A stretch of DNA of 24,000 nt from an uncultured archaeon (GCA_964610875.1 CAZSWP010000003.1:101148-125147); one strand, 5' to 3'. Counted from the stretch's first letter, positions 7 through 20,096 are shown. Numbers and translations are program-made. The notes: generated by a model from the letters alone, not told the origin.

Positions 7-1239
7 TTGAGAGATAATGACCCCCTGGATAAACTAAGACGATCTGCAAAAAGATACATTGAGAAAAAAAGTGAGAAGGAACTATTGGAACTAATTGTAA
101 ATTGTATTGGTGAGCGCCGTTCAAATGATTTACTTGATATTCTTGCGTCTGAAGAATCAAAAAGGGGCTGGCAAAAAGTTGTGTTTGATATAAAACACAT
201 ACTTGGAATGAGATATTCTATACCTCTAGGATTCACAAAAAATAAACTTGAAATTGAAGAGCTGAAGTTTAGAGAAGTTATCTTCGACACACTAGGATGC
301 CGAGGTCTTGAAGCAATTCCTTTGAGTATAGATTTGATACTTGAGAAACTAAATACATGTGAGAATATGACTGAGGCACAGAATACTCTAGCAGTGCTAT
401 GTGAGGAAGGGTTGAATGAATTAATCAGCAAGGGGGCACTACTTTTCTTTGACTCATCAGAATTTGCTGCTACTATTAAATCAGAATTACTGAGTCAAAT
501 TGAAAGTCGCCAGGAACAAAATATCTCACAACTTTATTTATCACGAGATGATCAATACATAGATATCACCGCTCTTTGGCACACAGAATTAGGCAGAAGA
601 GCACTTCTCAATATTGGAATAAAAGGAACTAAAATCACGGAAACTCAAATGGACCTTGTAATATCTGTATTACAAGTATCACGAGAAACGAAAAAATATC
701 TGATGGAATCCTTATCTGAGAACAAACAAGCGATTGAAACCAAATCTCTCAACCCATTGTATAACGAACTACTACAGTACATGATTGAATGGAACATTTC
801 TGGTCTTCGCTCTCTTGGAAGTAGATTTGCAATACCATTATTCAGACATATCACAATCTTTTCTTTTGAAAAATACTCAACTACTGAAGATAGTAAAACA
901 TACAATGAATATCTCGAAAGTCTGAAAAATCATGTACTTGTTAGAACATCTGAATCACTAGAAATACTTGAATATCTCTCTCAGAAATCAGACCCAAGAA
1001 TTGCAAGCCCTGCAATCACATATCTTGGAAACTTTTACACAGCAACAGTATCATCAATATTGGTAGATCTCGTCTGTTCAAGTAAGAAAAAAGTAATTCA
1101 ACATACCGCTGTTACAGCATTGAAAAACGTCCAAACAAGATGCCCAGAAACTAAGAATATAGTTGAGCTTGCTCTTAAAGCAGATTGCCAGAATAGAGGA
1201 AGACTATTGAAGTTTTATAGAGATTTGTGGCAAAAGTGA
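7..1239 (+). CDS. hypothetical alpha-helical repeat (HEAT/ARM-like?) protein, probably 5'-truncated by the window edge
   Basis: 410-codon ORF. The frame stays open back to nt 1 and the formal start is TTG, so the true start is likely upstream. Helix-prone Leu/Glu/Ser-rich sequence with no catalytic motif recognised. Contains an in-frame triple GTAWTAC array at 658-682. Confidence 0.6.
   Translation: MRDNDPLDKLRRSAKRYIEKKSEKELLELIVNCIGERRSNDLLDILASEESKRGWQKVVFDIKHILGMRYSIPLGFTKNKLEIEELKFREVIFDTLGCRGLEAIPLSIDLILEKLNTCENMTEAQNTLAVLCEEGLNELISKGALLFFDSSEFAATIKSELLSQIESRQEQNISQLYLSRDDQYIDITALWHTELGRRALLNIGIKGTKITETQMDLVISVLQVSRETKKYLMESLSENKQAIETKSLNPLYNELLQYMIEWNISGLRSLGSRFAIPLFRHITIFSFEKYSTTEDSKTYNEYLESLKNHVLVRTSESLEILEYLSQKSDPRIASPAITYLGNFYTATVSSILVDLVCSSKKKVIQHTAVTALKNVQTRCPETKNIVELALKADCQNRGRLLKFYRDLWQK
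658..682. repeat. three 9-bp-phased heptads GTAATAT-ct-GTATTAC-aa-GTATCAC (inside a CDS, in frame)
   Basis: Read directly. The units start at 658, 667 and 676. Confidence 0.6.
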
Positions 1240-1241
1240 CC

Positions 1242-1257
1242 GTATTACAAGTATTAA
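1242..1257. repeat. heptad dyad GTATTAC-aa-GTATTAA, 3 nt after the stop of ORF 7-1239
   Basis: Read directly. Intergenic, 65 nt upstream of the acdA start. Confidence 0.6.
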
Positions 1258-1321
1258 AAACAATACAAATCTAACTGCCATCTCGACAGACATAAAACCC
1301 ACTTGTATCTAGCTCATTATC

Positions 1322-2716
1322 ATGATGGTAAGAAATGAGATTGTGGAGGAACTAGACTCATTTTTCAATCCGAAAAGAGTTGCACTAGTAGGAGCCTCTG
1401 CTGACTATAGAAAACTGGGTAATTCAATATTGATGAATTTACTTGCATCAGAAATTGAAATTTATCCTATTACTATCAGTCGTGACCGTGTTTTAGGCGT
1501 CAATGCATATCCAAATCTCCATGATTTACCACAGCCTGTTGATCTTGTTATCATTGCTGTGGCAGCAAAATATTGTACTGGACTCATGTCAGAAGTCCGA
1601 AAAGCTGGAGCAAGAAATGCTATAGTAATATCTGGTGGATTTAGTGAAACTGGGGAGGAGGGGAAGAAACTTGAGAAACAACTTGTAGATGCTGCTAAGG
1701 CTGAGGGTGTCAGGATAATTGGTCCTAATTGTGTAGGAGTTTCAAATAGTAGATTGTTCAATGGCACATTTACTATGATGCCCGAGAGAGGAAATATTGC
1801 TCTTCTCTCTCAAAGTGGTGCATTAGGTGGAATGACCATATACACTACAAGAACAAAACGAATTGGGATGAGCAAATTTGTTAGCCTTGGGAATGCAGCT
1901 GATGTCAGTTTCACTGAAGTCCTTGAGTATTTCAGATATGACCAGAGAACGAACGTGATTGCAGTCTATGTTGAAGGTGTAGATGAGGGTCGTGATTTTT
2001 ATGAAGCATTAAAGAGAGCCTCGAGCGAAAAACCTGTTGTAGTTCTCAAGGGGGGAAGAAGTGAGGCTGGGGCAAAAGCAACCATGAGTCATACAGGGTC
2101 TCTTGCAGGTTCTATCAAAGTCTTTGATGGAATGATACGCCAAGCAGGTTGCGTGACTGCTCCTACATTTGATTCATTCTTTGAAGTTTGTAAATTATTT
2201 GATTATCAACCTTTACCGAAAGGTCGTAATATTGGTATTATTAGTAATACAGGGGGAGCTGGTGTTCTCGCTACTGATAAAGCGACCGACATGAACCTTG
2301 AAGTACCAGTTTTAAATCCTGAAACACGAAATGAATTAAGACAAGCCCTCTCTCCTATGGCATCAATTGAAAACCCAATCGATGTTGTTGCTAGTGGTGG
2401 AAGAAGGGAATACCGTATTGCTACAGAGTTATTGTTGAAAGATTCCAATGTTGATATGTTGTTAGTCATATGTGGCGTTCCAACCTTTGCAGGGATGACC
2501 CAAACTGAACATGCTGCTGGTACACTTGAAGGGGTACGGATGGCTGAAACTAGTAAACCAGTAGTGGGTGTTTGGCTCGCTGGCAATGTTGGAAAACCTG
2601 GAAAAGATCTTCTGGAGATGAATCGCATTCCTTGTTATGATGATCCAGCATTAGGTATTCTCTGCATGACTAAGATGGCTGAATATGCTGAAATGCACAG
2701 TCATATGAACTTGTAG
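1322..2716 (+). CDS. acdA: NDP-forming acetyl/acyl-CoA synthetase, alpha subunit (CoA-binding / succinyl-CoA-synthetase-like)
   Basis: 464 aa. CoA-binding N-terminus RVALVGASADYRKLGN, plus SQSGALGG and the phosphohistidine-loop-like MSHTGSLAGS. Length is typical of archaeal ACD alpha. No ATP-grasp beta subunit is adjacent. Confidence 0.8.
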   Translation: MMVRNEIVEELDSFFNPKRVALVGASADYRKLGNSILMNLLASEIEIYPITISRDRVLGVNAYPNLHDLPQPVDLVIIAVAAKYCTGLMSEVRKAGARNAIVISGGFSETGEEGKKLEKQLVDAAKAEGVRIIGPNCVGVSNSRLFNGTFTMMPERGNIALLSQSGALGGMTIYTTRTKRIGMSKFVSLGNAADVSFTEVLEYFRYDQRTNVIAVYVEGVDEGRDFYEALKRASSEKPVVVLKGGRSEAGAKATMSHTGSLAGSIKVFDGMIRQAGCVTAPTFDSFFEVCKLFDYQPLPKGRNIGIISNTGGAGVLATDKATDMNLEVPVLNPETRNELRQALSPMASIENPIDVVASGGRREYRIATELLLKDSNVDMLLVICGVPTFAGMTQTEHAAGTLEGVRMAETSKPVVGVWLAGNVGKPGKDLLEMNRIPCYDDPALGILCMTKMAEYAEMHSHMNL

Positions 2717-2737
2717 TAATTGTATTATTTGTAATAC
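2713..2737. repeat. three 9-bp-phased heptads GTAGTAA-tt-GTATTAT-tt-GTAATAC between the convergent acdA and RHH genes
   Basis: Read directly. The units start at 2713, 2722 and 2731. The array fills nearly the whole 25-nt intergenic gap and overlaps the acdA stop codon. Confidence 0.65.
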
Positions 2738-2741
2738 ACCA

Positions 2742-3047
2742 TTATTCAAGATACTTGTTTGCAAGTTCCGGAAACTCGTCTGTAACTGCATCCCTAAGCT
2801 TGCGCTCGACCCACATACTTAGATTGATTGCACGCTCATTTCTTACAGACTGAAGACAAGACCTAAGTTCAGTTGTAACACTGAATGACATTATTGGACT
2901 TCGTCTCTCACTGTTAGGAACAGCTGAGGGAGTTTCAGTCCTTCTAACCCGGGTCTGGCTGGTAGATTCAGTTGTTGATGTTGTTTCGTCTTTGTCTTTT
3001 TCATCTCTACCTTGTTCATCTTTCCGGTACTTTCCTAAGAGACTCAT
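2742..3047 (-). CDS. small putative ribbon-helix-helix DNA-binding protein with a disordered S/T/E/K-rich N-terminus
   Basis: 101-aa ORF whose ATG overlaps the stop of the upstream ATPase gene (TAATG on the minus strand, 3045-3049). The C-terminal MSFSVTTELRSCLQSVRNERAINLSMWVERKLRDAV shows a strand-helix-helix pattern like CopG/Arc/MetJ folds. This is pattern-based, not searched. Confidence 0.55.
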   Translation of the reverse strand: MSLLGKYRKDEQGRDEKDKDETTSTTESTSQTRVRRTETPSAVPNSERRSPIMSFSVTTELRSCLQSVRNERAINLSMWVERKLRDAVTDEFPELANKYLE

Positions 3048-4039
3048 TATCTGACCTCCCTAAGTAACGTCGCATATGCATCGGAAACTAGTGATGCTAT
3101 CTCTTCATTAACCTCAGGATTTCCATTGCTCCTGAAGTTTTCAGCAGCTACTTGTTGACAACCACGAGCTAACATTCTGATATCGCGAGGATTGCCTTTT
3201 GCAGCTGAATTGATTATATCAATCGCCTTCTCATGGAATGGATAAAGATCAAAATCATTTAGATCGAATGTGTCAATCTCACCACGTGCATATGCCAACC
3301 GTCGTCCTATGAACTCCTTTGCCTTCATAGCATCAAATGCAGGCACATCAAGGGGTTCAGTTCTATCAGCAATCTGTGGAAGATATGATAGCATAGCATT
3401 CCAATACATTGCAGTACCACTCATCACAAGAGTCACAATTGGTTCATCTAATGACTGTCCATGGCCTGCAATCATCTCTTCTGTAGGTAAATCTGCCAAG
3501 TAGCGTAATTTATGAAATGCTGCTTCCTGATTATCCGCAACATCTTCTATGAATAGTGCAGTACGACTTTGTTCTTCCATATATCTCCGAAGACATTCTT
3601 GAGCCACTGCTTCGATAATCTGACTAGACTCCCAAGACCTCCGATATTTTACTCGTAATGAATCGGCAATAGCTGCCGACATTTGCTTCTCGTATAACCC
3701 AGTCATTCCAACATAACCAGTGACGAATTTGTTACCACGTCGATCTGCCAGTGTTGGCAGGTCTCTCAGGGCAAGTAACATCAATGTACTTTTTCCAGAA
3801 CCAACAGGTCCACGAAGGAATACATGTCGCTCGTTTGTTATTATCAAATCTACAATAGAGTCAAGAAAGTCTGCATGCTCTATATAGAGCCGACTATCTG
3901 GCATCTTGAAACCACGAAATGGTGAGAATTTGGCCCTGATTTTATCCTCCCAAGCTTTTAGGGTTTCTTTTCGTGTATTGAAGTGACGTATTAGAGCACT
4001 CTCATGAATTGCAATTGTCATGGCTCGGCCTCGTATCAC
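3047..4039 (-). CDS. AAA+ P-loop ATPase of the ExeA/TniB/Orc1-Cdc6-like (AAA_22-type) clade, without a winged-helix domain
   Basis: 330 aa from GTG 4039, with an in-frame ATG at 4021. Walker A GPVGSGKS, Walker B ALFIEDV, sensor-1-like LVMSGT, and a C-terminal AKGNPRDIRMLARG arginine motif placed like the ExeA GxPRxIN motif and Orc1 sensor 2. The protein ends about 40 aa after that motif. Confidence 0.75.
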   Translation of the reverse strand: MIRGRAMTIAIHESALIRHFNTRKETLKAWEDKIRAKFSPFRGFKMPDSRLYIEHADFLDSIVDLIITNERHVFLRGPVGSGKSTLMLLALRDLPTLADRRGNKFVTGYVGMTGLYEKQMSAAIADSLRVKYRRSWESSQIIEAVAQECLRRYMEEQSRTALFIEDVADNQEAAFHKLRYLADLPTEEMIAGHGQSLDEPIVTLVMSGTAMYWNAMLSYLPQIADRTEPLDVPAFDAMKAKEFIGRRLAYARGEIDTFDLNDFDLYPFHEKAIDIINSAAKGNPRDIRMLARGCQQVAAENFRSNGNPEVNEEIASLVSDAYATLLREVR

Positions 4040-4057
4040 ATGTAGTTATTGTAATAC
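4033..4057. promoter_or_regulatory. three 9-bp-phased heptads GTATCAC-at-GTAGTTA-tt-GTAATAC at the 5' end/promoter of the ATPase-RHH operon
   Basis: Read directly. The units start at 4033, 4042 and 4051. The array lies 12-36 nt upstream of ATG 4021 and overlaps the GTG at 4039. Confidence 0.6.
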
Positions 4058-4070
4058 AATTTCAATACAC
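4050..4070 (+). repeat. copy 1 of a ~20-nt direct repeat, TGTAATACAATTTCAATACAC
   Basis: Aligns with 4158-4176 (TGTAATACATTCCAATCAC): 18 identities, one mismatch and two 1-nt indels. Confidence 0.6.
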
Positions 4071-4149
4071 TGCCCATTCATAAAGGTTCCGTGCGTTCAA
4101 AATACTTTATTCAAACAGCGCCAATAAAAAGCAATGTTTCAATAACATG

Positions 4150-4165
4150 GTATTAACTGTAATAC
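4150..4165. promoter_or_regulatory. heptad dyad GTATTAA-ct-GTAATAC upstream of the small membrane-protein gene
   Basis: Read directly. Lies 24-39 nt upstream of ATG 4189. Confidence 0.55.
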
Positions 4166-4176
4166 ATTCCAATCAC
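4158..4176 (+). repeat. copy 2 of the ~20-nt direct repeat, TGTAATACATTCCAATCAC
   Basis: See copy 1. The start-to-start distance is 108 nt. Confidence 0.6.
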
Positions 4177-4188
4177 GAAAATCCGAAC

Positions 4189-4533: not shown

Positions 4534-4579
4534 AAACACCTATCGCAATAGTTTTAGGAATGCGAAAATGCAGTGGATT

Positions 4580-4599
4580 TATTGAGTAATGACTCAATA
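4580..4599. promoter_or_regulatory. 8-bp perfect palindrome TATTGAGT-aatg-ACTCAATA at promoter distance from atpD
   Basis: Read directly. Lies 27-46 nt upstream of ATG 4626 and abuts the AT-rich AATATAC. A hairpin of this size can arise by chance in a window of this length. Confidence 0.3.
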
Positions 4600-4625
4600 T
4601 ACTGAGCCATGAAAAAGTGATTATT

Positions 4626-5255
4626 ATGAGCAAGGTTCTGCCAGGAACAAAGACTACTCGAAGCGAACTACTTCGAATAAAGACAAGAATGCGTCTTGCA
4701 GAACGTGGTCATGATTTATTAAAAGAAAAACGTGACTCCCTTGTTTTAGAGTTTTTTAATGCTATTGCTGAAATAAAAGAAGCACGTGACAAGATGGAAA
4801 AAGCTCTCGATGAAGCTTTTTCAAGTCTTACACAAGCAAAGATGATTATGGGTCCTGCTCGAGTAATTGAATTCGCTCATGCGAGTAAAGTACGAACTGA
4901 CCTATCGATTACCACTCGTTCAATGATGGGTGTCCGTGTTCCGGTAATCTCTGTTGAACAACAAGTACCTGAACTTCCTTATTCTCTCCCTGACTCAAGT
5001 GCAAGGCTTGATACAATGAGTCTGAAATTTAGAGAGGCTCTAAAGGCAATAATACACCTTGCCGAAATTGAATCTGCAATCAAGCGCCTCGCTCTTGAAA
5101 TAGAAAGGACAAAACGCAGAGTTTCTGCTCTCGAAACTGTGGTAATACCACGACTAGATGCAACCCAGAGATTTGTGAAACTGGCACTCGAAGAACGCGA
5201 GCGAGAAGACTTCATTCGTCTGAAGATCATCCGTGATCGGATGGAAAACGAATAA
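4626..5255 (+). CDS. atpD: A/V-type ATP synthase subunit D
   Basis: The N-terminal TRSELLRIKTRMRLAERGHDLLKEKRDSLVLEF is the hallmark of subunit D, and the rest is coiled-coil-like. ATG 4626 is preferred over GTG 4617. Confidence 0.85.
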   Translation: MSKVLPGTKTTRSELLRIKTRMRLAERGHDLLKEKRDSLVLEFFNAIAEIKEARDKMEKALDEAFSSLTQAKMIMGPARVIEFAHASKVRTDLSITTRSMMGVRVPVISVEQQVPELPYSLPDSSARLDTMSLKFREALKAIIHLAEIESAIKRLALEIERTKRRVSALETVVIPRLDATQRFVKLALEEREREDFIRLKIIRDRMENE

Positions 5256-5259
5256 TACA

Positions 5260-5637
5260 CTAGGTTTTTCTAAGTTTTAAAATAGCTGCAGCCAAATCTC
5301 CACCCGTTTCCTTCAAAGTTTCAATTGCAGTTTCAATATCCACACCTGTCTGGCCTGCCACTAATGCTGCATCTTCAACTGGAATCTCAATCTCAGATTC
5401 TGCTACTTCTGTGACTTCACCACCAGATGTGAGTCCACGTTCTATCTTATTTCCTGATACTTGATATGATTCATTCCCTGCTTGCTTAATGACCATCACT
5501 TGCGCATTAGCAATCTGCCATTCTTTATCTTCAAAACGAATAATGACCTCTTTAACTCCTTTTAGCTCATTTTGTTCAATACCCATTTTTTTCATCATTC
5601 GTGCCATCTGTTTAGGTGATAGTCCTCGAAATCCCAT
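5260..5637 (-). CDS. nac: nascent polypeptide-associated complex protein (archaeal NAC, NAC domain plus C-terminal UBA-like domain)
   Basis: 125 aa. The N-terminus PKQMARMMKKMGI followed by the beta-rich VIIRFEDKEWQIANAQVMVIKQAG is typical of archaeal NAC. The C-terminal EDAALVAGQTGVDIETAIETLKETGGDLAAAILKL is UBA-like. Confidence 0.85.
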   Translation of the reverse strand: MGFRGLSPKQMARMMKKMGIEQNELKGVKEVIIRFEDKEWQIANAQVMVIKQAGNESYQVSGNKIERGLTSGGEVTEVAESEIEIPVEDAALVAGQTGVDIETAIETLKETGGDLAAAILKLRKT

Positions 5638-5730: not shown

Positions 5731-6558
5731 TCAAATAGATTCCAGCTCTATGTCAAAAACAAAATGGATAATATTGGGCGAATAGTATTTTATTTTACGT
5801 ATTTCAATACTAGCAGTGAAATTATATTTCCCAGAAATAGTATTAATTGTATTACAAACATTATGGATTGAATCTGGATGTGATGCAAGATGCATATGTA
5901 TGGCACCTCCTCTCTTGGAAAGTGTTTCAAGGGCGTAGGGCAGAAACTCTGTAGTGCTATGCAAGTAACCCATCACAATCCTATCTGCTATACCAATAGG
6001 ATGTACCTTCCTACAGTCTCCCAAAATTGCTTCCATTCTATCAGTTACATTATTGAGTTGAATGTTTTCCTGTAAATAAGAGTGTGCTAAAGGACTGATT
6101 TCAATAGCTATCACTTTTGCTCCACTCCTACTAGCTATATGCAACCCGAATTGTCCTACACATGCAAACATATCCACAACGGTTTCTGAGGGATCGACCA
6201 AGTCCGGCAAACGAATTCGCTCTGCACGATTACCTCCAGAAAAAGTAATCTTCAATGGGTCAAGTTTGAACTTTACTCCACTTTCAATGTGTGTGGTGAC
6301 AGTGTTAGAATCTCCTGCAAACAACTTGTATTGTGGTTCTCTGATCTCTCCTTTTGTGCCTCCAACCTTAATAGCAATAGACTTTGCCTTTTTCTCATAC
6401 TGCAGCGTAAGCTCTGCAATCATTTTGGATAGAACAGCAACCTCATTTTTTATCTGTAGTAGGACGACATGTCCTACAACGTGGTAACCTTGTGGTAAGC
6501 TAGACTCTGATGTAACATATTCTCTGAGTTCTGTTTTGAGGAAATTCCTATATTTCAT
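5731..6558 (-). CDS. Trm5/Taw2 (Met-10+) family SAM-dependent tRNA methyltransferase
   Basis: 275 aa. Has the class I SAM-binding motif VVDMFACVGQFGLHIA and the overall Met-10+ layout. Trm5 versus Taw2/Tyw2 cannot be resolved by eye. Confidence 0.7.
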   Translation of the reverse strand: MKYRNFLKTELREYVTSESSLPQGYHVVGHVVLLQIKNEVAVLSKMIAELTLQYEKKAKSIAIKVGGTKGEIREPQYKLFAGDSNTVTTHIESGVKFKLDPLKITFSGGNRAERIRLPDLVDPSETVVDMFACVGQFGLHIASRSGAKVIAIEISPLAHSYLQENIQLNNVTDRMEAILGDCRKVHPIGIADRIVMGYLHSTTEFLPYALETLSKRGGAIHMHLASHPDSIHNVCNTINTISGKYNFTASIEIRKIKYYSPNIIHFVFDIELESI

Positions 6559-6559: not shown

Positions 6560-6575
6560 GTAATTCATGTATTAC
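6560..6575. repeat. heptad dyad GTAATTC-at-GTATTAC filling the 22-nt gap between the pan stop and the Trm5-like start
   Basis: Read directly. An in-phase related octamer, GTATATAC, follows at 6587. Confidence 0.6.
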
Positions 6576-9238: not shown

Positions 9239-9994
9239 TTGAAAGAAATTGTACTAATGCCCAAAATTTACGGTCAATACCGTAATAGACTATCCAATCA
9301 GATAGAGTCAGATATTCACGAAATGGTGCGAGAATTAGATGCCAGAATAATGCGCTTCTCTCTTGACAATAGAGGTCATCCAAAACTCATTGTTGAAGGA
9401 AAGGACGAAGAATTTGTAATAAATGTATTACGAACTGAATTTGGTGAAGCACTAACATTTCATCAAGCACTTCCTAACACATCATATCATGGAAATTTAA
9501 TTGATGTTGGAAAGGTAGGCTATGGTCTTTATATTGACATTGGAATTGTCGAACCTGAATTTTCAGATGCTTTAATCCCATTGCATAGACTTAGAGAACA
9601 ACTCGATATGGAAGGCATGTCTACTCGAAAAATCGCAAAGAATCTAAATCTCGTTGATTATCTTCCAGTAGAAGTAACCATCATAGAAACAGACTCATCT
9701 GACTCAAAAATAGAGGCTGAATTTAGTGATGTTCTGCTACAGAGGCTTGAGAACTGGATCAATGATGACCATGAACGACTTCTTGTGTTTGGCGCCAATC
9801 GAGAGATGATTGAAACTGCTTTAGGCATAACACATCATCTTGAAGACATTTATGAATTCGAACAACTAGGGCATCTTGAGTTTGCACTGAGATGTAAAAG
9901 AAGTACACGTGCGTCAGGAATTCTTGCTGCTATAGGCCCAAAACTAAAGGGAGTTCCAATGCATCTCTTCATACCATCAGAAATAGAGAGATGA
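9239..9994 (+). CDS. conserved archaeal hypothetical protein with an S1/OB-like segment (possibly DUF2110-type)
   Basis: 251-aa ORF with a TTG start at 9239 and an alternative ATG at 9257. YHGNLIDVGKVGYGLYIDIGI resembles an S1-like OB strand pattern. The position directly downstream of tfe fits a conserved neighbourhood I recall, but this was not verified. Confidence 0.55.
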   Translation: MKEIVLMPKIYGQYRNRLSNQIESDIHEMVRELDARIMRFSLDNRGHPKLIVEGKDEEFVINVLRTEFGEALTFHQALPNTSYHGNLIDVGKVGYGLYIDIGIVEPEFSDALIPLHRLREQLDMEGMSTRKIAKNLNLVDYLPVEVTIIETDSSDSKIEAEFSDVLLQRLENWINDDHERLLVFGANREMIETALGITHHLEDIYEFEQLGHLEFALRCKRSTRASGILAAIGPKLKGVPMHLFIPSEIER

Positions 9995-10672
9995 ATGATG
10001 CCACGAATTGATGTTTGGCTTGTGGAACAGGGACTATTCAAATCAAGGCAGGCTGCAAAGAGAGCTATAAGGAATGGATACGTAAAAGTCAATGGGGTCA
10101 TAGCAAAGCCGTCTACCAAAATTTCTGGAAACGAATCGGTTGAGGTTTCCGATGATGCTAAAGATGTGCCACTTGGTTATACTAAACTAAGGCAGATAAA
10201 TCATCATCTCCATAACAGACTTATCCAATCTGGAATGAGAGCACTAGATATTGGTAGTTCTGTAGGAGGTTTTCTCAAGTATCTACTAGAAAAAGATGTC
10301 ATTGTAACAGGAATTGAAATTTCAGATGAATTCATACAAGAGTTAGAACATCTAGTAGAAGAATATGACACACTCTCATTGATTATAGATGATGCATTTC
10401 TCCTCGAGCCCTCAGAACTGTTTGAAAAAGAAGACTTTGATTTACTTCTCATTGATGTAACAACAGATCCGGATGGCACAATCTCACTAGCAGAGAAATA
10501 CTCCCTATTTGTGAAAAAAGGAGGGTACATGCTGCTGGCAATCAAATCACAAGAAGATGACCTCGAAAGAAAAACGATTGATCATGTACTCCAAGAATTA
10601 GGGTTCTCTGAATTACAAGTAATACAACTTGATGACTCAAAGAAGGAAATACACATAGTAGCTCTTCGCTAG
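9995..10672 (+). CDS. tlyA: TlyA-like S4-domain RNA 2'-O-methyltransferase (FtsJ fold)
   Basis: 225 aa. The N-terminal S4 motif is RIDVWLVEQGLFKSRQAAKRAIRNGYVKVNG. The SAM-binding motif is ALDIGSSVGGFLKYLL. The start codon abuts the stop of the upstream gene. Confidence 0.7.
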   Translation: MMPRIDVWLVEQGLFKSRQAAKRAIRNGYVKVNGVIAKPSTKISGNESVEVSDDAKDVPLGYTKLRQINHHLHNRLIQSGMRALDIGSSVGGFLKYLLEKDVIVTGIEISDEFIQELEHLVEEYDTLSLIIDDAFLLEPSELFEKEDFDLLLIDVTTDPDGTISLAEKYSLFVKKGGYMLLAIKSQEDDLERKTIDHVLQELGFSELQVIQLDDSKKEIHIVALR

Positions 10673-10682
10673 TAAGCAACTC

Positions 10683-10690
10683 TTTTATTG
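10683..10690 (+). promoter_or_regulatory. TATA-like box (TTTTATTG) for tRNA-Val
   Basis: AT-rich octamer 22-29 nt upstream of the mature tRNA 5' end at 10712. This is the spacing expected for archaeal TATA-to-TSS. Confidence 0.4.
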
Positions 10691-10711
10691 GGATTAGACT
10701 AGCGATGGATA

Positions 10712-10821
10712 GGGCCGCTAGTCTAGCCCGGCTATGATGTCTCGTTTACACCGAGAATTCGCATGAGCATCATGCTCATCGACATCGAAGGTCGCTGGTT
10801 CAAATCCGGCGCGGCCCACCA
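10712..10821 (+). tRNA. tRNA-Val (anticodon UAC, 10747-10749) with a ~32-nt intron at a non-canonical site (variable-loop region) and encoded CCA
   Basis: Hand-folded. Acceptor GGGCCGC/GCGGCCC, anticodon stem TCTCG/CGAGA with loop TTTACAC, T arm GCTGG-TTCAAAT-CCGGC, A73, CCA. There are 37 nt between the anticodon stem and the T stem where about 5 are expected. The insert contains the hairpin ATGAGCA/TGCTCAT. Confidence 0.85.
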
Positions 10822-10887: not shown

Positions 10888-11009
10888 GCGGGAGTAGCCA
10901 AGCCCGGTCAAAGGCGGTGGACTTAAGATCGGATGAATTACGGGGTCATTACGTATAGGACATCCACTCTCGTAGGAGTCCGTGGGTTCGAAGCCCACCT
11001 CCCGCACCA
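10888..11009 (+). tRNA. tRNA-Leu (anticodon UAA, 10924-10926) with a ~34-nt anticodon-loop intron, long variable arm and encoded CCA
   Basis: Hand-folded. Acceptor GCGGGAG/CTCCCGC, anticodon stem GTGGA/TCCAC, loop CTTAAGA plus insert (41 nt between the stem halves), 14-nt variable arm TCTCGTAGGAGTCC, T arm GTGGG-TTCGAAG-CCCAC, A73, CCA. Confidence 0.85.
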
Positions 11010-13065: not shown

Positions 13066-14418
13066 GTGAGTCTGGACGAGTCAGGATATACTGGATCTGT
13101 ATTACAATTAATAGCATCAGCCAATGCAAAAGTTGGCGACCAAGTCAAAATATCACACGATGATTCTGAGTTCATTGGAATCCTTATGCCACGCAGCCAA
13201 GTTGGTTCTGACCCTAATCATATTGTTATCAAACTTGAGAGCGGATATAATATCGGCATCAGATTGTCTGAAAACACTACACTTGAGAAAATCAAGACAC
13301 CTCGTAGACCGAAACGAAAGGATATTGAAACAACAACTCTAACTACGAAGGGGTTGCCTAAAGTCTCAGTATTGAGTACCGGTGGAACAATTGCAAGTAG
13401 AGTTGATTATCGTACTGGTGCCGTGAATCCCGCTCTAACAGCACAAGATTTCTATGATTCCATTCCTGAATTACAGGAACATGCAAACATAACAGCAAAG
13501 ATAATGATGAGTGTTCTCTCTGAGAATGTCCATCCCAGTGATTGGGAAAAAATAGCGCGTAGTGTTGCATCTCAAATACGCAATAGTGCAGATGGCGTTG
13601 TTGTTGCTCATGGTACTGATACTCTTGCTTTCACTGCAACCGCTCTTGCATTTGCACTACAAGATTTACCAGTACCAGTGGCACTTGTTGGTTCACAAAG
13701 GTCTTCTGATAGGCCATCATCCGATGCATCCTTGAATCTAATTGGTGCTATAGACTTAGTAGGACGGGTTCATGCGGCAGAAGTAATGGTTGTGATGCAT
13801 GGAGTACCAGATGACAGCTTTCTCTATGCTCACAGAGCTGCACGGTCTCGTAAACTACATACTAGCAGAAGGGATGCCTTTCAATCAGTCAATGCACTCC
13901 CTCTATTCAAGATTGATAATGGAGAATCGTTCGAACTCAATGTGCCTCTACGGCGACGTGACAAGGATAGAAAACTCAAATTAAAAGCAAAATTTGATGA
14001 TAGAGTTGCTCTAGTAAAGACACATCCTGGAATTCATGACTCTTTTATTACCAGTCTGATCGATAGTGACTACAAAGGTATAATCATAGAGGGCACAGGA
14101 CTTGGTCATATTCCTGAGTGCATCTATCCTGGAATTCGCAAAGCAATTGCGGAAGACATCATTGTTGCAATGACAAGCCAGTGCATAAACGGACGAGTGG
14201 ATATGAATGTCTATCGCACAGGAGTAGAGCTCCTTGAGATGGGAGTGATATCCTGTGAGGATATGTTGTCTGAGGTCGCTCTGGTAAAACTAATGTGGCT
14301 TTTAGCAAATCAGAAGGATTCGGATAAGATTCGAGTTCAGATGGTTCAATCTCTGGTAGGCGAGATAGATATGCGAAGTGAACTCTCTGAATATACTGGA
14401 AACTCGGAGTTGATGTAG
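13066..14418 (+). CDS. gatD: Glu-tRNA(Gln) amidotransferase subunit D
   Basis: 450 aa with a GTG start. Asparaginase-like core with LSTGGTIASRVDYRTGAV and VAHGTDTL motifs. Located immediately upstream of gatE. Confidence 0.9.
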   Translation: MSLDESGYTGSVLQLIASANAKVGDQVKISHDDSEFIGILMPRSQVGSDPNHIVIKLESGYNIGIRLSENTTLEKIKTPRRPKRKDIETTTLTTKGLPKVSVLSTGGTIASRVDYRTGAVNPALTAQDFYDSIPELQEHANITAKIMMSVLSENVHPSDWEKIARSVASQIRNSADGVVVAHGTDTLAFTATALAFALQDLPVPVALVGSQRSSDRPSSDASLNLIGAIDLVGRVHAAEVMVVMHGVPDDSFLYAHRAARSRKLHTSRRDAFQSVNALPLFKIDNGESFELNVPLRRRDKDRKLKLKAKFDDRVALVKTHPGIHDSFITSLIDSDYKGIIIEGTGLGHIPECIYPGIRKAIAEDIIVAMTSQCINGRVDMNVYRTGVELLEMGVISCEDMLSEVALVKLMWLLANQKDSDKIRVQMVQSLVGEIDMRSELSEYTGNSELM

Positions 14419-14419
14419 C

Positions 14420-16339
14420 ATGGTGTCTAAAGAACATTACAAGAAAATCAGACTCATGGTTGGCCTGGAACTCCATCAACAATTGGACACCTCAAGAAAA
14501 CTCTACTGTCATTGTCCTACACTCATCCGCGATGACGAACCTCATGGCAAAATCATTAGGCGACTCAGACCTACCAAAAGTGAGATGGGGGAGATTGATC
14601 CAGCAGCTCTCTTCGAGTTTCAAAGGAAGAAGCGATTCTGCTATGAATACTACAATGATAGCACATGTCTGGTAGAAGCAGATGAAGAACCTCCTCATGA
14701 CATCAGTAGCGAGGCAATCGACATATGTCTTACAATGGCAGAGTTTCTAGAGTCTACACCTGTAGATGAGATTCACCCTATGCGTAAAATCGTAATCGAC
14801 GGATCAAATACAACAGGATTCCAACGAACGGCTATTATCTCTCAAGGCGGGAGTGTTGAAGTCGAAGGGAAAACGATTGGAATTCAAGCCATCAGTCTGG
14901 AAGAAGATGCGGCAAGAAAAATTGATGAAGATGACAAGAACAACATGAGAATCTACCGTCTAGATCGTTTGGGCATCCCTCTGATTGAGATTGCTACAGC
15001 TCCAGATATCAACACACCTGATGAGGCGCAGAATGTAGCACTAACTCTTGGACTACTCTTGAGAGCTACAGGCAAGGTGAAGCGTGGACTTGGCACGATT
15101 CGACAAGATGTGAACATCTCAATTCAAGATGGTGCCATTATGGAAATCAAGGGGTTACAACAACTCGATTTACTCTCCGTGGTGGTAGAATATGAAGCAC
15201 TTCGACAAGAACGACTACTAAATATTAGAGATACTCTCATTGAACGCGGAATTACTCCGGATACTATCAAGGATGATATCGTCAATGTGACAGCTGAGCT
15301 ATCAAAAAGCGAATCGAAGGTCTTGAAGCGCGCTTTGAAAGCAGATGGCTCCATTTTTGCTGTCAAACTACCCGGTTTTGCAGGACTAATCGGTATGGAG
15401 ATACAACCCAATCGTCGACTCGGAACAGAATTATCCGATTATGCGAAGTTCTGGGGCAACGTGGGAGGGATATTCCATACTGATGAACTACCAAAACATG
15501 GGATAACCCAAGATGAAGTAGATAGAATACGAAAGACACTCAAGACAGAAGAAGAGGACGCCGTTGTACTAGTTGCTGCTGCAAAAGAGAATTGTATAGA
15601 TGCTCTTACTGCAGTTGTAGAGCGTGCAAGAGAGGCTGTAATTGGGGTCCCAGCTGAAACACGTACACCACTACCAAATGGTACATCAAAATACGCTCGT
15701 CCGCGACCTGGCGCAAGTCGAATGTATCCCGAAACCGATGTACGACCAGTAAAAATCACAGAATCACACCTTCGTAAAATCAAGAAAAATATGCCCGAAA
15801 CCCTTGAAGAGAAGGAGAAACGTTACATAGCTGAACACAAATTGAGCCAAGAACTCGCTTTACAAATGGCCAAGTCTTTGAATATGGACCTCTTTGAAAA
15901 ACTTGTAGAAGAAACTGGCGAAAGCCCAACTCTGATTGCGGCCACTCTTGAGAATACTGTTGTCAGTCTTCACCGAGATGAAATCCCAACAGAACAAATA
16001 ACTGACCAGCACTTCATCGAACTTTTCCACATGACCAAAAGGGGGAAGATAGCACAAGATGCGATAGCAGAAATCCTCACATATCTTGCAAACCATCCCA
16101 ATTTCAGTGTAGAAGATGCAATCGAAGCTAAAGGACTTGGTATAGTTGATCAAGATGAGTTAACCGCAACCATCAGAAAAATCGTTAAAGAACGAAAGGA
16201 CTACATTCTTGAAGCTGGTGATAGAGCTATTGGTGGTCTAATGGGTGCTGCCATGAAGGAGTTACGCGGGAAAGCCGATGGTAAGACTGTAAAGAATTTG
16301 ATAGCAGCTGAGGTAAAACGAGTTCTGGACTCATCATGA
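14420..16339 (+). CDS. gatE: Glu-tRNA(Gln) amidotransferase subunit E
   Basis: 639 aa. GatB/E-type core (GLELHQQL, CLVEADEEPPH, RPGASRMYPETD) with the archaeal insertion and a C-terminal YqeY-like tail. Starts 1 nt after the gatD stop. Confidence 0.9.
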   Translation: MVSKEHYKKIRLMVGLELHQQLDTSRKLYCHCPTLIRDDEPHGKIIRRLRPTKSEMGEIDPAALFEFQRKKRFCYEYYNDSTCLVEADEEPPHDISSEAIDICLTMAEFLESTPVDEIHPMRKIVIDGSNTTGFQRTAIISQGGSVEVEGKTIGIQAISLEEDAARKIDEDDKNNMRIYRLDRLGIPLIEIATAPDINTPDEAQNVALTLGLLLRATGKVKRGLGTIRQDVNISIQDGAIMEIKGLQQLDLLSVVVEYEALRQERLLNIRDTLIERGITPDTIKDDIVNVTAELSKSESKVLKRALKADGSIFAVKLPGFAGLIGMEIQPNRRLGTELSDYAKFWGNVGGIFHTDELPKHGITQDEVDRIRKTLKTEEEDAVVLVAAAKENCIDALTAVVERAREAVIGVPAETRTPLPNGTSKYARPRPGASRMYPETDVRPVKITESHLRKIKKNMPETLEEKEKRYIAEHKLSQELALQMAKSLNMDLFEKLVEETGESPTLIAATLENTVVSLHRDEIPTEQITDQHFIELFHMTKRGKIAQDAIAEILTYLANHPNFSVEDAIEAKGLGIVDQDELTATIRKIVKERKDYILEAGDRAIGGLMGAAMKELRGKADGKTVKNLIAAEVKRVLDSS

Positions 16340-16346
16340 TTTTTTT
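16340..16346 (+). terminator. oligo-T (T7) tract immediately after the gatE stop
   Basis: TGA at 16337-16339 is followed directly by TTTTTTT. Oligo-T is the established archaeal termination signal. Confidence 0.5.
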
Positions 16347-16436
16347 GTGAGGACGGCAACTTTAATAGCGCAACCCGCTGGTTTGCTCAAACTGTGGAAT
16401 CTGGGCTTTGTCCATTCCATTTTACCTGAGAAACGT

Positions 16437-16574
16437 GCCGCAGTGGCCTAGCCTGGCAGGGCGCGAGACTCATAATCTGATTGAACTACTCAATCAAAAA
16501 TATGGGGTCAACGTCTCGAAGGCCCGAGATGAGAAATCTCGAAGTCGAGGGCTCGAATCCCTCCTGCGGCACCA
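16437..16574 (+). tRNA. tRNA with CAU anticodon (elongator Met or Ile2; 16471-16473) carrying two introns (~38 nt in the anticodon loop, ~23 nt in the variable/T-arm region) and encoded CCA
   Basis: Hand-folded. Acceptor GCCGCAG/CTGCGGC, D arm GCCT-AGCCTGGCA-GGGC, anticodon stem CGAGA/TCTCG, loop CTCATAA, T arm GAGGG-CTCGAAT-CCCTC, A73, CCA. There are 45 nt between the anticodon stem halves and 28 nt between the anticodon stem and the T stem. It is not initiator-like: G1:C72, and no triple G:C in the anticodon stem. Confidence 0.8.
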
Positions 16575-16950
16575 TCTCTCTTCCAAAATAGATGAATACA
16601 ATGACAATGCTACAAGTCAGGTATTTCTTCATGACTAGAATGACCAAATACAATCCGGACTCTCTAATAGAGAAGAAAAAGTGCAGTCATCAATTGAATT
16701 GGAATTGGTCCTGTATAGTAGAGAAAGTTGATTGGTGGAATTATCATTAGTGGAACAAGGAAACTGCCCATCGGAACGATTAGTGTACAGGCCTCCAAAA
16801 ATAGCGGTTCAATCAACAAAGAATGATTTAGATATCGTTTCACAATCTTTCCATCAATCAATTTATTTAGACCTTAACGGTTGCGCAAAAGGGGTCGTAG
16901 GTGGTATACAATTCCTATCGACCGTTTCACCAATCTGATGGTGTTGTCTA

Positions 16951-18447
16951 TTGGAGAGAAATCAGGGAATAATCAGCGTCTTCGACAAGACAGGAATTAT
17001 TGATTTTTGCAACAAAATATCAGAATATTTTCACTTTATCAGTACAGGAAAGACCGCAAAACTTCTCGAATCAGCCAACATACCTGTAAACACTGTTTCC
17101 AGTGTGACAAACTATCCTGAGATACTTGATGGGCGTGTAAAGACTCTGCATCCAAAAATCATGGGTGGCATCCTTGGGACTGCCGCGCACGAAACCGAGC
17201 TCAAACAAATGGACCTTCGACCAATAGGTTTGGTCGTTGTTAATTTGTATCCTTTTGAACAGGTCGTTTCAAAACCACATGCGTTCATGGATGCAATAGA
17301 GAATATCGATATTGGCGGCGTGACACTTCTGCGAGCAGCTGCTAAGAACTATCATGAAGTCATAGTGGTCAGTTCTCCTGAAGACTATGGTAGTGTGGCA
17401 GACGCGATAAAATCAGAATCGCTATCCATGGAATTTCGGAAAGAACTAGCCAAGGAAGCTTTCTTCCATACTGCAAAATATGATATTGCTATCAGTAAAT
17501 ATCTCTCATCAGAAGACAGATTTCCACCAAGTTTTGTCTTGGGATTTGACCGTCCTCAACACTTGCGATATGGTGAGAACTGGCATCAAGAAGCTCGATA
17601 TTATCTCCGAACCGACAAGGAGCCATTCTTTGAACAAATTCATGGGAAGGAGGTTTCTTACAACAATCTTGTTGATTTCTATGCCGCTATCGGACTATTT
17701 TCTGAGCATAACGGACCAGCATGCGCAATAATCAAACACACAAGTCCTTGTGGTTTTGCTACTGGTGATGACATTGAAACTGCTTTTGATCATGCTTTTG
17801 CCACGGACAATCTTTCTGCATTCGGTTCGATTATGGGTTTCAACCGCCCGGTGACCGCTGAACTAGCTAGAAAAGTCAATGCAATGTTTGTGGATGGAAT
17901 CATTGCACATAGCTATCATGATGATGCACTTGAGATACTGAAAAAGAAGAAAAACATCATAATCTGCAATTTCAAAGAGTATGAAATTCCTGATTTGACA
18001 ATAAGATTGGTTCCCAATGGAATCCTAGTTCAACCAACGGACACTCACATCATCTCAGAATTGGACTTCAAAGTGGTCACAAAGAAATCACCAACGCCTG
18101 AACAGATGAAGGAACTCATCTTCGCGTGGAAAGTAGTGAAATATGCCAAGTCTAATGCAGCAGTCATAAGTAAGAGGACACGAACCCTTGGAATAGGCAT
18201 GGGTCAGACTTCCAGAATCGCAGCTGTAGAACTCGCTTTACAACGTGCAGGTGATAGAGCAAGGAATGCAGTAATGGCATCTGATGCGTTCTTTCCGTAT
18301 CGTGACTCCGTAGATGCAGCTGTACAAAAGGGAGTCACTGCAATAATTGCACCTGGTGGTTCGATACGTGACAGTGAATCAATAAAAGCTGCAGACGAAG
18401 TCGGAATTACAATGGTCTGGTCCGGCAAACGAGCTTTTTTGCATTAA
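16951..18447 (+). CDS. purH: bifunctional AICAR transformylase / IMP cyclohydrolase
   Basis: 498 aa with a TTG start. N-terminal MGS-like domain (ISVFDKTGIIDF, RVKTLHPKIMGGIL) and C-terminal AICARFT domain (IIKHTSPCG, GGSIRD). Confidence 0.9.
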   Translation: MERNQGIISVFDKTGIIDFCNKISEYFHFISTGKTAKLLESANIPVNTVSSVTNYPEILDGRVKTLHPKIMGGILGTAAHETELKQMDLRPIGLVVVNLYPFEQVVSKPHAFMDAIENIDIGGVTLLRAAAKNYHEVIVVSSPEDYGSVADAIKSESLSMEFRKELAKEAFFHTAKYDIAISKYLSSEDRFPPSFVLGFDRPQHLRYGENWHQEARYYLRTDKEPFFEQIHGKEVSYNNLVDFYAAIGLFSEHNGPACAIIKHTSPCGFATGDDIETAFDHAFATDNLSAFGSIMGFNRPVTAELARKVNAMFVDGIIAHSYHDDALEILKKKKNIIICNFKEYEIPDLTIRLVPNGILVQPTDTHIISELDFKVVTKKSPTPEQMKELIFAWKVVKYAKSNAAVISKRTRTLGIGMGQTSRIAAVELALQRAGDRARNAVMASDAFFPYRDSVDAAVQKGVTAIIAPGGSIRDSESIKAADEVGITMVWSGKRAFLH

Positions 18448-18514
18448 CCTGACAATTTGAAAGAGTGCTTTTACTGTAGACAGATTTTTGAATGGTACTT
18501 CTCTAGCCAGACAT

Positions 18515-18540
18515 AATCAGAAAGAATATGTTCTGATTTT
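18515..18540 (+). terminator. 8-bp hairpin (AATCAGAA/TTCTGATT) running into a T-run, downstream of purH
   Basis: 18515-18522 pairs perfectly with 18531-18538 across an 8-nt loop, followed by TT. Its function as a terminator is only inferred. Confidence 0.3.
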
Positions 18541-18570
18541 GTAGAGTCATCTCAGGAGTGGTAGTAACAA

Positions 18571-19776
18571 ATGGTTCTCGCATTCAAAACCCTTGATGAT
18601 GTTGATGTCAAAGGAAAAAGAGTTCTCGTTCGGTTAGATATCAATTGTTCTGTTGAGCCGGATACTAAGGAGATACTGGATGACACTAGAATTGTGGCTG
18701 CTCTCCCTACCTTGAATGAATTATCCGAGAGCAAAGTCGTACTCATGGCACACCAAGGTCGTCCTGGTAGCGATGATTTCATCTCTCTAGAACCACATAC
18801 TGAGATTCTAAAGGAAAAAGGGATCAATGCACACTTTATCGATGACATCTTTGGTGATAAAGCAAAGCAGGCAATCAAAGCACTAGAAGATGGAGAAGTC
18901 CTAGTACTTCAAAATGTTAGATATTTTGACGGTGAACTCAAGAAGGCACCTCCTGAAGAGGTTGCAAAGGAGCCCTTGGTACAGGAGATCTATCCTCTAT
19001 TTGACCTATTTGTCAATGACGCATTTGGAGCTGCTCACCGTTCTCAAGCCTCTCTTGTTGGCTTCACAACTGTGTTGCCTTCCGTTGCTGGTAGATTGGT
19101 GGAAAAAGAGATACGTACATTGAAATCAGCGACCGAGACTGAGAAGTATCCTTGGACGCTACTGTTAGGAGGAAGTAAAGTAGAAGACAAGGTGAAGATT
19201 TTAGACAAACTACTAAGTGTAGAGCGTGTAGATCATGCCCTCCTTGGTGGACTTATCGGAACATTGTTTTTAATCGCAAATGGTGAAATATCTGAAACAT
19301 ATTCCAGACCTATCAAAGGATATAGTAAATCCGTTGAAACGGCAAGGACCCTTTTGGATAAATACCCAAAAGTAATCAGCCTTCCAAAAGATGCTGCAGT
19401 AGAGAGAAATAGGGAAAGAATTGAATGCAGTTTTGAAGAGATGAATGAAGCCCCCTTCTATGATATCGGTAGCAAGACAATAAACGAGTATGTGGAAATA
19501 ATCAAGGAGTCCGCAGTAGTATTTGCTAATGGTCCAATGGGCTTTTTTGAGAAAACACCATTTGCTCTGGGCACGGAAAAGACTCTAGATGCCATTGCAT
19601 CATGTCAGGGAATCACTGTGGTTGGTGGTGGTCACCTCGGATCAATGGCTGAAAAGAAGAAGCTGGATGATAAAATCACTCACATTAGCACAGGTGGTGG
19701 TGCAACTATAAACTTCCTCACAGGTAAAAAGTTGGAAGTGATAGCTGCCCTAGAGCAAGCTGCCAAACGGATGTGA
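18571..19776 (+). CDS. pgk: phosphoglycerate kinase
   Basis: 401 aa. Motifs VLVRLDINCSV and LMAHQGRPG in the N-domain, and GGGHLG...STGGGATINFL in the C-domain. Confidence 0.9.
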   Translation: MVLAFKTLDDVDVKGKRVLVRLDINCSVEPDTKEILDDTRIVAALPTLNELSESKVVLMAHQGRPGSDDFISLEPHTEILKEKGINAHFIDDIFGDKAKQAIKALEDGEVLVLQNVRYFDGELKKAPPEEVAKEPLVQEIYPLFDLFVNDAFGAAHRSQASLVGFTTVLPSVAGRLVEKEIRTLKSATETEKYPWTLLLGGSKVEDKVKILDKLLSVERVDHALLGGLIGTLFLIANGEISETYSRPIKGYSKSVETARTLLDKYPKVISLPKDAAVERNRERIECSFEEMNEAPFYDIGSKTINEYVEIIKESAVVFANGPMGFFEKTPFALGTEKTLDAIASCQGITVVGGGHLGSMAEKKKLDDKITHISTGGGATINFLTGKKLEVIAALEQAAKRM

Positions 19777-19782
19777 ATTCAA

Positions 19783-20076
19783 TTGCAGACAGCAGCTGAT
19801 CTATCATTCTGGATGCCAGTCATTTACCTATTCATAATCAATATCATTGCATTTTTCGCCATGTGGTGGGACAAGAGAAAGGCATCTCAAAATGCATGGC
19901 GTATTGCCGAAGCAACTCTTCATATCATAGGCTTCATGGGTGGTGCTTTAGGCATTTTTGGCGGAATGTACAAATTCAGACACAAGACCCAGAAGAGAAT
20001 ATTCCAAGGCATTGCAATAGTCAGTCTTATTGTTTCTCTTGTGATATACTGGTTCATAGCAAACATGTACATATAA
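19783..20076 (+). CDS. DUF1294-like small membrane protein
   Basis: 97 aa with a TTG start at 19783 and an alternative ATG at 19813. FFAMWWDKRKASQNAWRIAEATLH followed by two hydrophobic helices matches my recollection of the DUF1294 pattern. Confidence 0.6.
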   Translation: MQTAADLSFWMPVIYLFIINIIAFFAMWWDKRKASQNAWRIAEATLHIIGFMGGALGIFGGMYKFRHKTQKRIFQGIAIVSLIVSLVIYWFIANMYI

Positions 20077-20080
20077 TATT

Positions 20081-20096
20081 GTAATACTTGTATTAC
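20081..20096. repeat. heptad dyad GTAATAC-tt-GTATTAC (16-bp palindrome) between the DUF1294 gene and the 3' end of tRNA-Thr
   Basis: Read directly. It starts 5 nt after the stop codon, at a convergent junction. Confidence 0.65.

Follow-up and report, generated by a model that had tools for sequence, protein, structure and literature searches.

The stretch of DNA analysed here, a window of 24,000 nt from an uncultured archaeon (GCA_964610875.1, CAZSWP010000003.1:101148-125147), carries genes of archaeal type, among them those for NAC (nascent-polypeptide-associated complex), PAN (proteasome-activating nucleotidase), TFE, GatD/E and subunit D of an A-type ATP synthase (AtpD), together with an operon that encodes an AAA+ ATPase and a small protein with a ribbon-helix-helix (RHH)-like domain. 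The closest genomes are metagenome-assembled genomes (MAGs) of Thorarchaeota, which belong to the Asgard archaea; their PAN proteins are 80-87% identical to the one encoded here, and the window's exact proteins were recovered elsewhere only on short Logan contigs. The subject of this report is a palindromic heptamer, GTAWTAC, that recurs in this locus as dyads and triples phased at 9 bp. Comparison across genomes leads us to conclude, with high confidence, that these arrays form a genuine, conserved and Thorarchaeota-specific regional block of predicted protein-binding sites in double-stranded DNA.

There are 15 copies of the exact heptamer in the window, where dinucleotide shuffles give 1.82 ± 1.33 (largest count 6). 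The initial annotation, made from the window alone, had counted at least 14 and had placed about half of them in non-coding DNA, and both estimates hold: 7 of the 15 are intergenic, in the ~13% of the window that is non-coding. The phased dyad GTAWTACNNGTAWTAC, with up to two mismatches allowed, is found 13 times where 0.23 are expected, and of the 11 dyads with at most one mismatch, 8 fall within the initial 6.6 kb (p = 0.002). All ten loci listed by the initial annotation are present at their coordinates; that list, however, missed the triple at 2226-2250, stopped short at 1242, where the array reaches 1266, and counted as a full unit the middle of 4033-4057, which is weak (4/7 bases). The 9-bp phase it had noticed proved rigid across the Thorarchaeota loci, where a GTAWTAC heptamer has a partner with at least 6 of the 7 bases 328 times at 9 bp and 69 times at 18 bp, and never at 8 or 10 bp. 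A scan that presupposed no motif and looked for phased 7-mers of whatever sequence returned GTAATAC at spacing 9 as the sole outlier, with 16 and 8 copies in two loci against no more than 4 in resamples. When sites are anchored on exact heptamers, the core is the 11-bp palindrome TTGTAWTACAA, flanked on either side by weaker phased units. A polarity rule for exact versus imperfect units was also considered and dropped, as the bias is explained by orthology and no general rule holds. The sites of the window and the two genes of the operon are collected in Table 1.

Table 1. Phased GTAWTAC sites of the window, and the operon that lies among them
Position	Strand	Feature	Context	Orthologous positions and remarks
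658-682		Triple GTAATAT-CT-GTATTAC-AA-GTATCAC	Within HEAT-like ORF (7-1239)	Dyad at orthologous positions in other Thorarchaeota HEAT-like genes
1242-1266		Triple GTATTAC-AA-GTATTAA-AA-ACAATAC	3 nt past HEAT-like stop, upstream of CoA ligase gene	Site class in 23 loci
2226-2250		Triple	Within CoA ligase coding sequence (peptide NIGIISNTGG)	Exact heptamer kept in 35/37 orthologues; also in L259, L260 and L261
2713-2737		Triple	Fills convergent gap between CoA ligase stop (2716) and RHH-like stop (2742)	Class conserved in at least 20 loci, flanks diverge
2742-3047	-	Small protein, 101 aa, candidate binder	Downstream gene of the operon	N-terminal MSLLGKYRK, disordered linker, C-terminal RHH-like domain
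3047-4021	-	AAA+ ATPase, 324 aa, Walker A GPVGSGKS	Co-operonic with RHH-like gene	Weak Pfam AAA_16 and AAA_22 matches
4033-4057		Triple GTATCAC-AT-GTAGTTA-TT-GTAATAC	12-36 nt upstream of AAA+ ATG, ~20 nt downstream of TATA-like box	Operator-like position
4150-4165		Dyad	Other side of AAA+ divergent region, upstream of small membrane-protein gene (start most likely 4189 or 4255)	
5252-5258		Degenerate single unit ATAATAC	Across 4-nt AtpD/NAC convergent gap	Relatives have full dyad GTATTAC-AA-ATAATAC; class in 32 loci
5840-5855		Dyad	Within TYW2/Trm5-like coding sequence (peptide CNTINT, minus strand)	Orthologous position in at least 6 loci
6560-6575		Dyad	22-nt gap between PAN stop (6581) and TYW2 start (6558); edge of dense domain	Most relatives without dyad there
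9416-9431		Dyad, lineage-specific	DUF2110 coding sequence, outside conserved domain	1/26 orthologues
10610-10625		Dyad, lineage-specific	Near 3' end of S4-methyltransferase coding sequence	2/32 orthologues
13099-13114		Weak dyad, lineage-specific	5' end of gatD	1/29 orthologues
20081-20096		Perfect dyad GTAATAC-TT-GTATTAC, isolated outlier	5 nt past DUF1294 stop	Absent there in L255-L258

Each of the Thorarchaeota PAN loci carries 5-13 dyads per 21 kb, over a range of 38-52% G+C, and no dyads were found in three other Asgard loci or in 31 outgroup loci. The sites lie overwhelmingly to one side: 185 dyads fall on the AAA+ side of PAN against 12 on the opposite side, a bias whose direction is shared by all 22 full loci, and the 48 kb to the right of gatE (4 × 12 kb, from four PGK-centred loci) hold none. 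Three AAA+-centred loci (L259, L260 and L261), taken from a 2.58-Mb chromosome, a 592-kb contig and a 43-kb contig, have the same sharp edge at PAN/TYW2, and their arrays extend across HypF and POR (pyruvate:ferredoxin oxidoreductase-type genes) as far as the loci go, which is 10 kb past the operon. At least 13 kb of DNA belongs to the dense domain, which takes in TYW2/NAC, AtpD, the AAA+/RHH-like operon, the CoA ligase, the HEAT-like gene, HypF and POR, at a density of ~1-2 sites/kb and a spacing of ~0.3-1.3 kb. Nearly all of its intergenic gaps hold sites, whether convergent, tandem or divergent, and so do conserved intragenic positions. The motif is thus confined to one chromosomal neighbourhood and is not the general gene-boundary signal for which it was first taken.

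A scan of viral contigs gave single chance heptamer matches only. Two giant-virus MAG contigs (L093 and L128) have raised GTAWTAC counts that trace to AT-rich coding repeats, including the Ser-Asn-Thr codon repeat (AGT AAT ACA)n, and have nothing to do with the arrays. When metagenomes were scanned with a pattern of 18 columns, 14 of them fixed bases, the matches listed were mostly random AT-rich sequence, and a literature search on the motif or on Asgard terminators found nothing relevant.

Six sites of the window (658, 1242, 2226, 2713, 4033 and 5840) are conserved in relatives, whereas the dyads at 6560, 9416, 10610, 13099 and 20081 are lineage-specific, yet far above chance expectation. 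In the orthologous convergent gaps NAC/AtpD and RHH-like/CoA ligase the dyad is retained while the flanks have diverged. In the window, the TAG stop codon falls inside the first unit of the 2713-2737 triple; the convergent AtpD and NAC stop codons are 4 nt apart (5253-5262), and the single unit that remains there overlaps the AtpD stop. Dyads in coding sequences number 159 against 21 in synonymous-codon shuffles. At the CoA-ligase site, which 35 of 37 species keep, third codon positions within the motif are frozen and the spacer base alone varies, and an inversion of the CoA-ligase/HEAT block has left the sites in place. The earlier caveat that in-frame copies might be coincidences of codon usage accordingly fails for the conserved sites; it stands for the single heptamers at 5142 and 8288, which are without conservation in relatives and are probably due to chance.

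These patterns bear first on a passive genome signature, that is, either an iterated palindrome of the HIP1 type, generated by methylation or repair bias, or a spreading repeat of the REP or MITE type. A clade-specific palindrome that is over-represented in genes and spacers alike, and of which new lineage-specific copies keep arising, has the look of such a signature. Its copies, however, occupy one neighbourhood and are not spread over the genome, bias would not give rigid 9-bp arrays, the orthologous conservation is unlike that of mobile repeats, and no flanking repeat or transposase signature was seen. We consider a passive origin very improbable; REP/BIME or MITE-like repeats in particular were rejected on the orthologous conservation, the intragenic copies and the regional confinement, and a HIP-like signature on the first and last of these.

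Concerning the molecule that is read, we favour double-stranded DNA recognized by cooperating symmetric dimers, because motif k-mers and their reverse complements are enriched equally, the flanks are symmetric also at gene ends transcribed in one direction only, sense and antisense RNA fold equally (minimum free energy -4.6 versus -3.7 for shuffles), adjacent units have complementary central W bases in only 59% of dyads, and the spacing is rigid. The proposal of the initial annotation that a symmetric dimeric DNA-binding protein would read the heptamer stands up to these observations. An element acting in RNA, be it a 3'- or 5'-untranslated region (UTR) hairpin of adjacent units or the target of an RNA-binding protein (UGUA-type, PUF-like or CFIm-like), would suit the location of sites right after stop codons, the UGUA with which the motif starts, and the 10-bp stem that can be drawn by eye in triples between unit 1 and unit 3. 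The folding energy is nevertheless barely under that of shuffles and alike for both strands, the W bases of neighbouring units pair in just over half of the dyads, the deviations of imperfect units are not wobble-compatible, a hairpin loop would not need strict spacing, the symmetry holds where a single strand is transcribed, and the regional restriction is left unexplained. We give an RNA-level element hardly any credence, and strand symmetry, together with weak folding and rigid spacing, led to the rejection of the hairpin and UGUA/PUF-like candidates.

A different role at gene ends would be that of a bidirectional transcription terminator or insulator, bound by a factor or acting through the sequence itself, which replaces the archaeal oligo-T signal. 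Such a role would account for the concentration of heptamers 1-30 nt past stop codons, for the presence of the motif in ~80% of short convergent gaps versus 0-1% of operon-internal gaps, and for T5 tracts being found at 5% of Thorarchaeota convergent gene ends versus 70% in Methanobacteria loci. Gene ends outside the domain lack the motif, however, including those of the RpiA/T2SSE and PGK/LOR convergent pairs, and ordinary T tracts are present after gatE and the tRNA genes. Sites are found, too, in the stretch from TATA box to start codon and at conserved places in the middle of genes, where termination would be harmful, and few independent convergent gaps are left once orthologues are collapsed. 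Termination or insulation is, on this evidence, an unlikely function. A genome-wide terminator is rejected, the PGK-centred loci and the far side of PAN being empty, and so is an archaeal intrinsic terminator, as the motif has no T tract, is absent at gene ends outside the domain, and is present at promoters and in coding sequences. A T7 tract stands right after the gatE stop (16340-16350), and therefore ordinary oligo-T terminators exist in this genome.

The protein most likely to bind the arrays, although the case is circumstantial, is the 101-aa RHH-like protein, which the initial annotation had already suggested. It is our candidate because it is restricted to Thorarchaeota, is co-operonic with the AAA+ ATPase amid the array, has a triple at the promoter of its operon, and shows an RHH-like layout. 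The two genes overlap by one base and are syntenic in 38-39 Thorarchaeota loci. The family of the small protein has 217 members, all on Thorarchaeota-type contigs, with 10 matches among 1.84 billion representatives, and the N-terminal motif listed in Table 1 is invariant in it. In the AlphaFold2 monomer, an extended segment (50-58, SPIMSFSV) is followed by helices at 59-72, 76-91 and 93-99, with a predicted local distance difference test (pLDDT) score of ~90; this modelled strand-helix-helix-helix layout, together with weak matches of distant relatives to Pfam RHH_1, is compatible with an RHH fold. A protein of 5994 aa (P0362) contains 16 stretches that match the C-terminal part (positions 69-100) of the family profile.

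The AAA+ family comprises 134 members, nearly all of them 74-100% identical (one is 63%) and nearly all labelled Thorarchaeota, and the ATPase is conserved to the same degree as PAN. Its top Foldseek matches are archaeal Orc1/Cdc6, Drosophila ORC, TnsC and the Sir3 AAA+ domain (E ~1e-8, with a TM-score of only ~0.4), all of them AAA+ proteins that load onto or coat DNA. The protein ends after the lid domain, with no winged-helix domain and no Pfam WHD_Cdc6 match. Full membership of the Orc1/Cdc6 family was therefore rejected: the AAA+ fold is similar, but the C-terminal winged helix is absent.

Repeated palindromic sites lie directly upstream of the operon in ~35 species, as a conserved triple between TATA box and ATG, besides the dense domain around it. 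The promoter in these species has the layout TATA, ~22 nt, TTGTATTACAAGAAGTACTTGTGATAC, ~20 nt, GAGGTCC, ATG. The motif itself is not a B recognition element (BRE) or TATA element, since a separate TTTTAT-like TATA box is present and the motif stands downstream or upstream of it. An enrichment of TTTTAT past stop codons likewise reflects the TATA box that belongs to the following gene or tRNA, and is no part of the motif.

Such promoter sites raise the question of whether the arrays are simply operators of a local transcription factor that co-regulates POR, the CoA ligase/ACD, HypF, AtpD, NAC and PAN and plays no part in structure or segregation. The architecture of palindromic dyads, the restriction of the motif to a block of neighbouring genes, and the operator-like sites downstream of the AAA+ and HypF TATA boxes (and, in some lineages, upstream of the PAN TATA box) would all agree with this. 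Many sites, on the other hand, are in promoterless convergent 3' gaps, many lie deep in coding sequences with their synonymous positions frozen, a regulon would not be expected to have a site about every 0.6 kb, and the sites outlast the gene-block inversion whatever the position of the promoter. We think it improbable that local regulation is all there is to the arrays.

Our tentative preference, by analogy with SegB/segS, ParG and omega, is that the block may serve the Thorarchaeota-specific RHH-like protein and the ORC/Cdc6-like AAA+ ATPase encoded beside it as an array of the centromere or segrosome kind, with autoregulation of the operon; the terminator, local-regulon, RNA-element and passive-signature explanations are less likely than this one. 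One symmetric dimer would occupy each heptamer, with neighbouring dimers in contact, so that a dyad-type site such as TTGTATTACAAGTAATACAA would carry two RHH-like dimers. RHH dimers typically read tandem short palindromes at a fixed sub-turn phase in this manner, as MetJ, omega, ParG and SegB illustrate. The conserved basic tail at the N-terminus of the RHH-like protein would engage the co-operonic ATPase, and the two proteins together could coat the block as a higher-order nucleoprotein domain. The coated domain might then act as a centromere or segrosome, or as a loading or organising zone, beside the operon and probably near a replication origin. Bound to the triple that closely follows the TATA box, over the inferred transcription start, the two proteins would in addition keep their own promoter repressed.

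This segrosome-like arrangement can be compared with several known systems. In Sulfolobales, the RHH protein SegB has one strand followed by three helices, and its unstructured N-terminus activates SegA; SegB binds palindromes, including the three-repeat segS just upstream of segAB, and ~83% of its other sites are intragenic, with the strongest enrichment around the operon (PMC12284271, PMC8682754, PMC12139799). The likeness extends to a small protein with an unstructured N-terminus, an RHH domain (here an RHH-like one, as predicted) and an extra helix, co-operonic with an NTPase, and to palindromic sites, a three-unit one among them, that stand directly upstream of the operon, are often intragenic and cluster around the operon. 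The differences are four. The SegB motif is a 13-bp TCTAGA-S-TCTAGA, whereas GTAWTAC arrays are phased at 9 bp; the SegAB partner is a ParA-type ATPase and not an ORC/Cdc6-like AAA+ protein; and SegB has ~35-50 sites per chromosome where the array has ~20-27 in 13 kb. No sequence similarity was detected between the proteins of the SegB system and those of Thorarchaeota.

In MetJ operators, the metboxes are two to five tandem short palindromes at 8-bp phase; every metbox is occupied by a single RHH dimer, and the dimers bind cooperatively. GTAWTAC at 9 bp follows the same grammar, but MetJ is a bacterial, promoter-bound metabolic repressor with no regional array, intragenic sites or ATPase partner. 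Omega, similarly, reads contiguous 7-bp heptads in direct or inverted orientation, and ParG reads 4-bp boxes at 8-bp phase. The partition systems of these two proteins, ParF/ParG of TP228 and delta/omega of pSM19035, resemble the present case in having an RHH centromere binder, short repeats at a sub-helical-turn phase and operon autoregulation; they differ in being plasmid-borne, with a compact centromere of ~100-200 bp and a ParA-type ATPase, where the array is chromosomal, at least 13 kb long and set amid housekeeping genes. [quoted passage not shown]

With the bacterial parS sites, which surround parAB near oriC, the array shares a clustering of palindromes around the operon and, possibly, proximity to the origin, to judge from synteny with a divergent locus (L251) described below. 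The parS palindromes lie within ~10 kb or more of parAB, are often intragenic and are conserved across species. ParB, however, is a helix-turn-helix CTPase clamp that spreads from a few 16-bp sites, whereas the Thorarchaeota sites are many, short and phased, and the proteins are unrelated. As for Orc1/Cdc6, ORC and Sir3, they come closest to the model of the ATPase, and known ones assemble on or coat DNA at defined sites; the Thorarchaeota protein differs by its missing winged helix and its low TM-score, and the array sites are not origin recognition box (ORB) elements.

A number of points weigh against the block as we have delimited it and against a segrosome-like role for it. The stated length of the domain is a lower bound, since L259, L260 and L261 end in POR-alpha or just beyond and the far boundary was not reached; the contiguous neighbourhood sampled amounts to ~45 kb, and further dense domains could lie elsewhere. 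The loci are largely syntenic and the counts correspondingly pseudo-replicated, coming down to ~46 independent site classes, of which 21 are in coding sequences. What ties the protein to the motif is their co-location, a common phyletic range and the architecture of the sites. The 101-aa protein has no direct Pfam, PDB-sequence or Foldseek match, and the three distant relatives that match RHH_1 in the homologous region do so at E 0.0014-0.047, below threshold, leaving the fold unproven. Nor is the ATPase a partition ATPase of the ParA type with a deviant Walker A; its Walker A is classical (GPVGSGKS), and ORC/Cdc6, TnsC and Sir3 have the nearest folds. At 1-2 per kb, the density of sites is far above that of SegB or parS sites.

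The most divergent loci that have the operon, L251 and L252 (AAA+ protein 63% identical; 31% G+C), also count against it, having no phased arrays. Their gene ends are T-rich, and a single TTGTAATACA stands ~90 nt upstream of the operon. A scan of L251 for another phased motif found an unrelated palindrome pair only. The lack of arrays in these two loci fits either a later expansion of an autoregulatory operator in the other lineages or a different binder.

L251 also bears on the position of the array relative to an origin. There, at 1318-1786 and 2618-2936, cdc6 adjoins an AT-rich region with ORB-like repeats, TTTCCACTGGAAA; a palindrome, TTAGAACATATGTTCTAA, occurs twice. A replication origin is probable here, and the distance to the AAA+/RHH operon is ~8.7 kb. 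Synteny of POR-alpha/u96 with L251 reaches true Thorarchaeota, and an origin may thus lie near the array in them too; this presumed proximity is a further weak point of the segrosome-like array. In the Methanomassiliicoccales loci L054, L056 and L057, PAN lies ~8 kb from cdc6, which hints at an old linkage of PAN and origin.

A bolder version of the segrosome-like array, which we hold to be doubtful, would be a hitherto undescribed machine for chromosome organisation or segregation. In it, an ORC/Cdc6-derived AAA+ protein without winged helix would be recruited by an RHH adaptor to a phased-palindrome array of at least 13 kb that flanks the origin, forming a coated 'centromere' or a Sir3-like domain from parts of the initiator clade and not from ParA/ParB. 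To our knowledge, next to nothing has been established about chromosome organisation and segregation in Asgard archaea, the closest prokaryotic relatives of eukaryotes, and we know of no Thorarchaeote in culture. Sharply bounded, deeply conserved phased palindromes, with two lineage-specific proteins encoded among them, offer a concrete and testable handle on these processes. If the segrosome-like reading is true, it would add a third type of partition or organising system to ParABS and SegAB. Eukaryotes have reused the ORC/Cdc6 class for silencing, in the form of Sir3, and the Thorarchaeota system would then represent an initiator-type AAA+ protein put to new use, before eukaryotes, in the formation of chromatin domains. 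Whether or not the proposed binder is right, the array gives the comparative genomics of Thorarchaeota a strong landmark, and annotators should be aware that several codons of core genes are constrained by selection at the DNA level.

Some minor features of the locus may be added. Between the motif and the HypF start, CACTTCAYTGGATTAATATCG is strongly conserved in all Thorarchaeota loci (~19520-19560 in L001, and orthologues); either a leader RNA or another operator may account for it. TTTTAT boxes stand 60-90 nt before many start codons, implying 5' UTRs of some size and Shine-Dalgarno-like GGAGGT sequences. A Thorarchaeota promoter at 10673-10695 of the window, found in related loci as well, consists of a BRE-like AAGCAACTC followed by TTTTAT, ~30 nt before the 5' end of a tRNA. 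On the minus strand, between the 20081 dyad and the next gene (~20125-20300), acceptor-stem-like and T-arm-like tRNA ends can be made out by eye around a long insert; Rfam and ARAGORN confirm no tRNA there. Intron-containing tRNA genes were identified with Rfam, together with one odd ARAGORN call, at 10712-10818, 10888-11006 and 16437-16571 on the plus strand and at 23316-23415 on the minus strand. The tRNA genes of the window have an encoded CCA end and are followed by short T runs.

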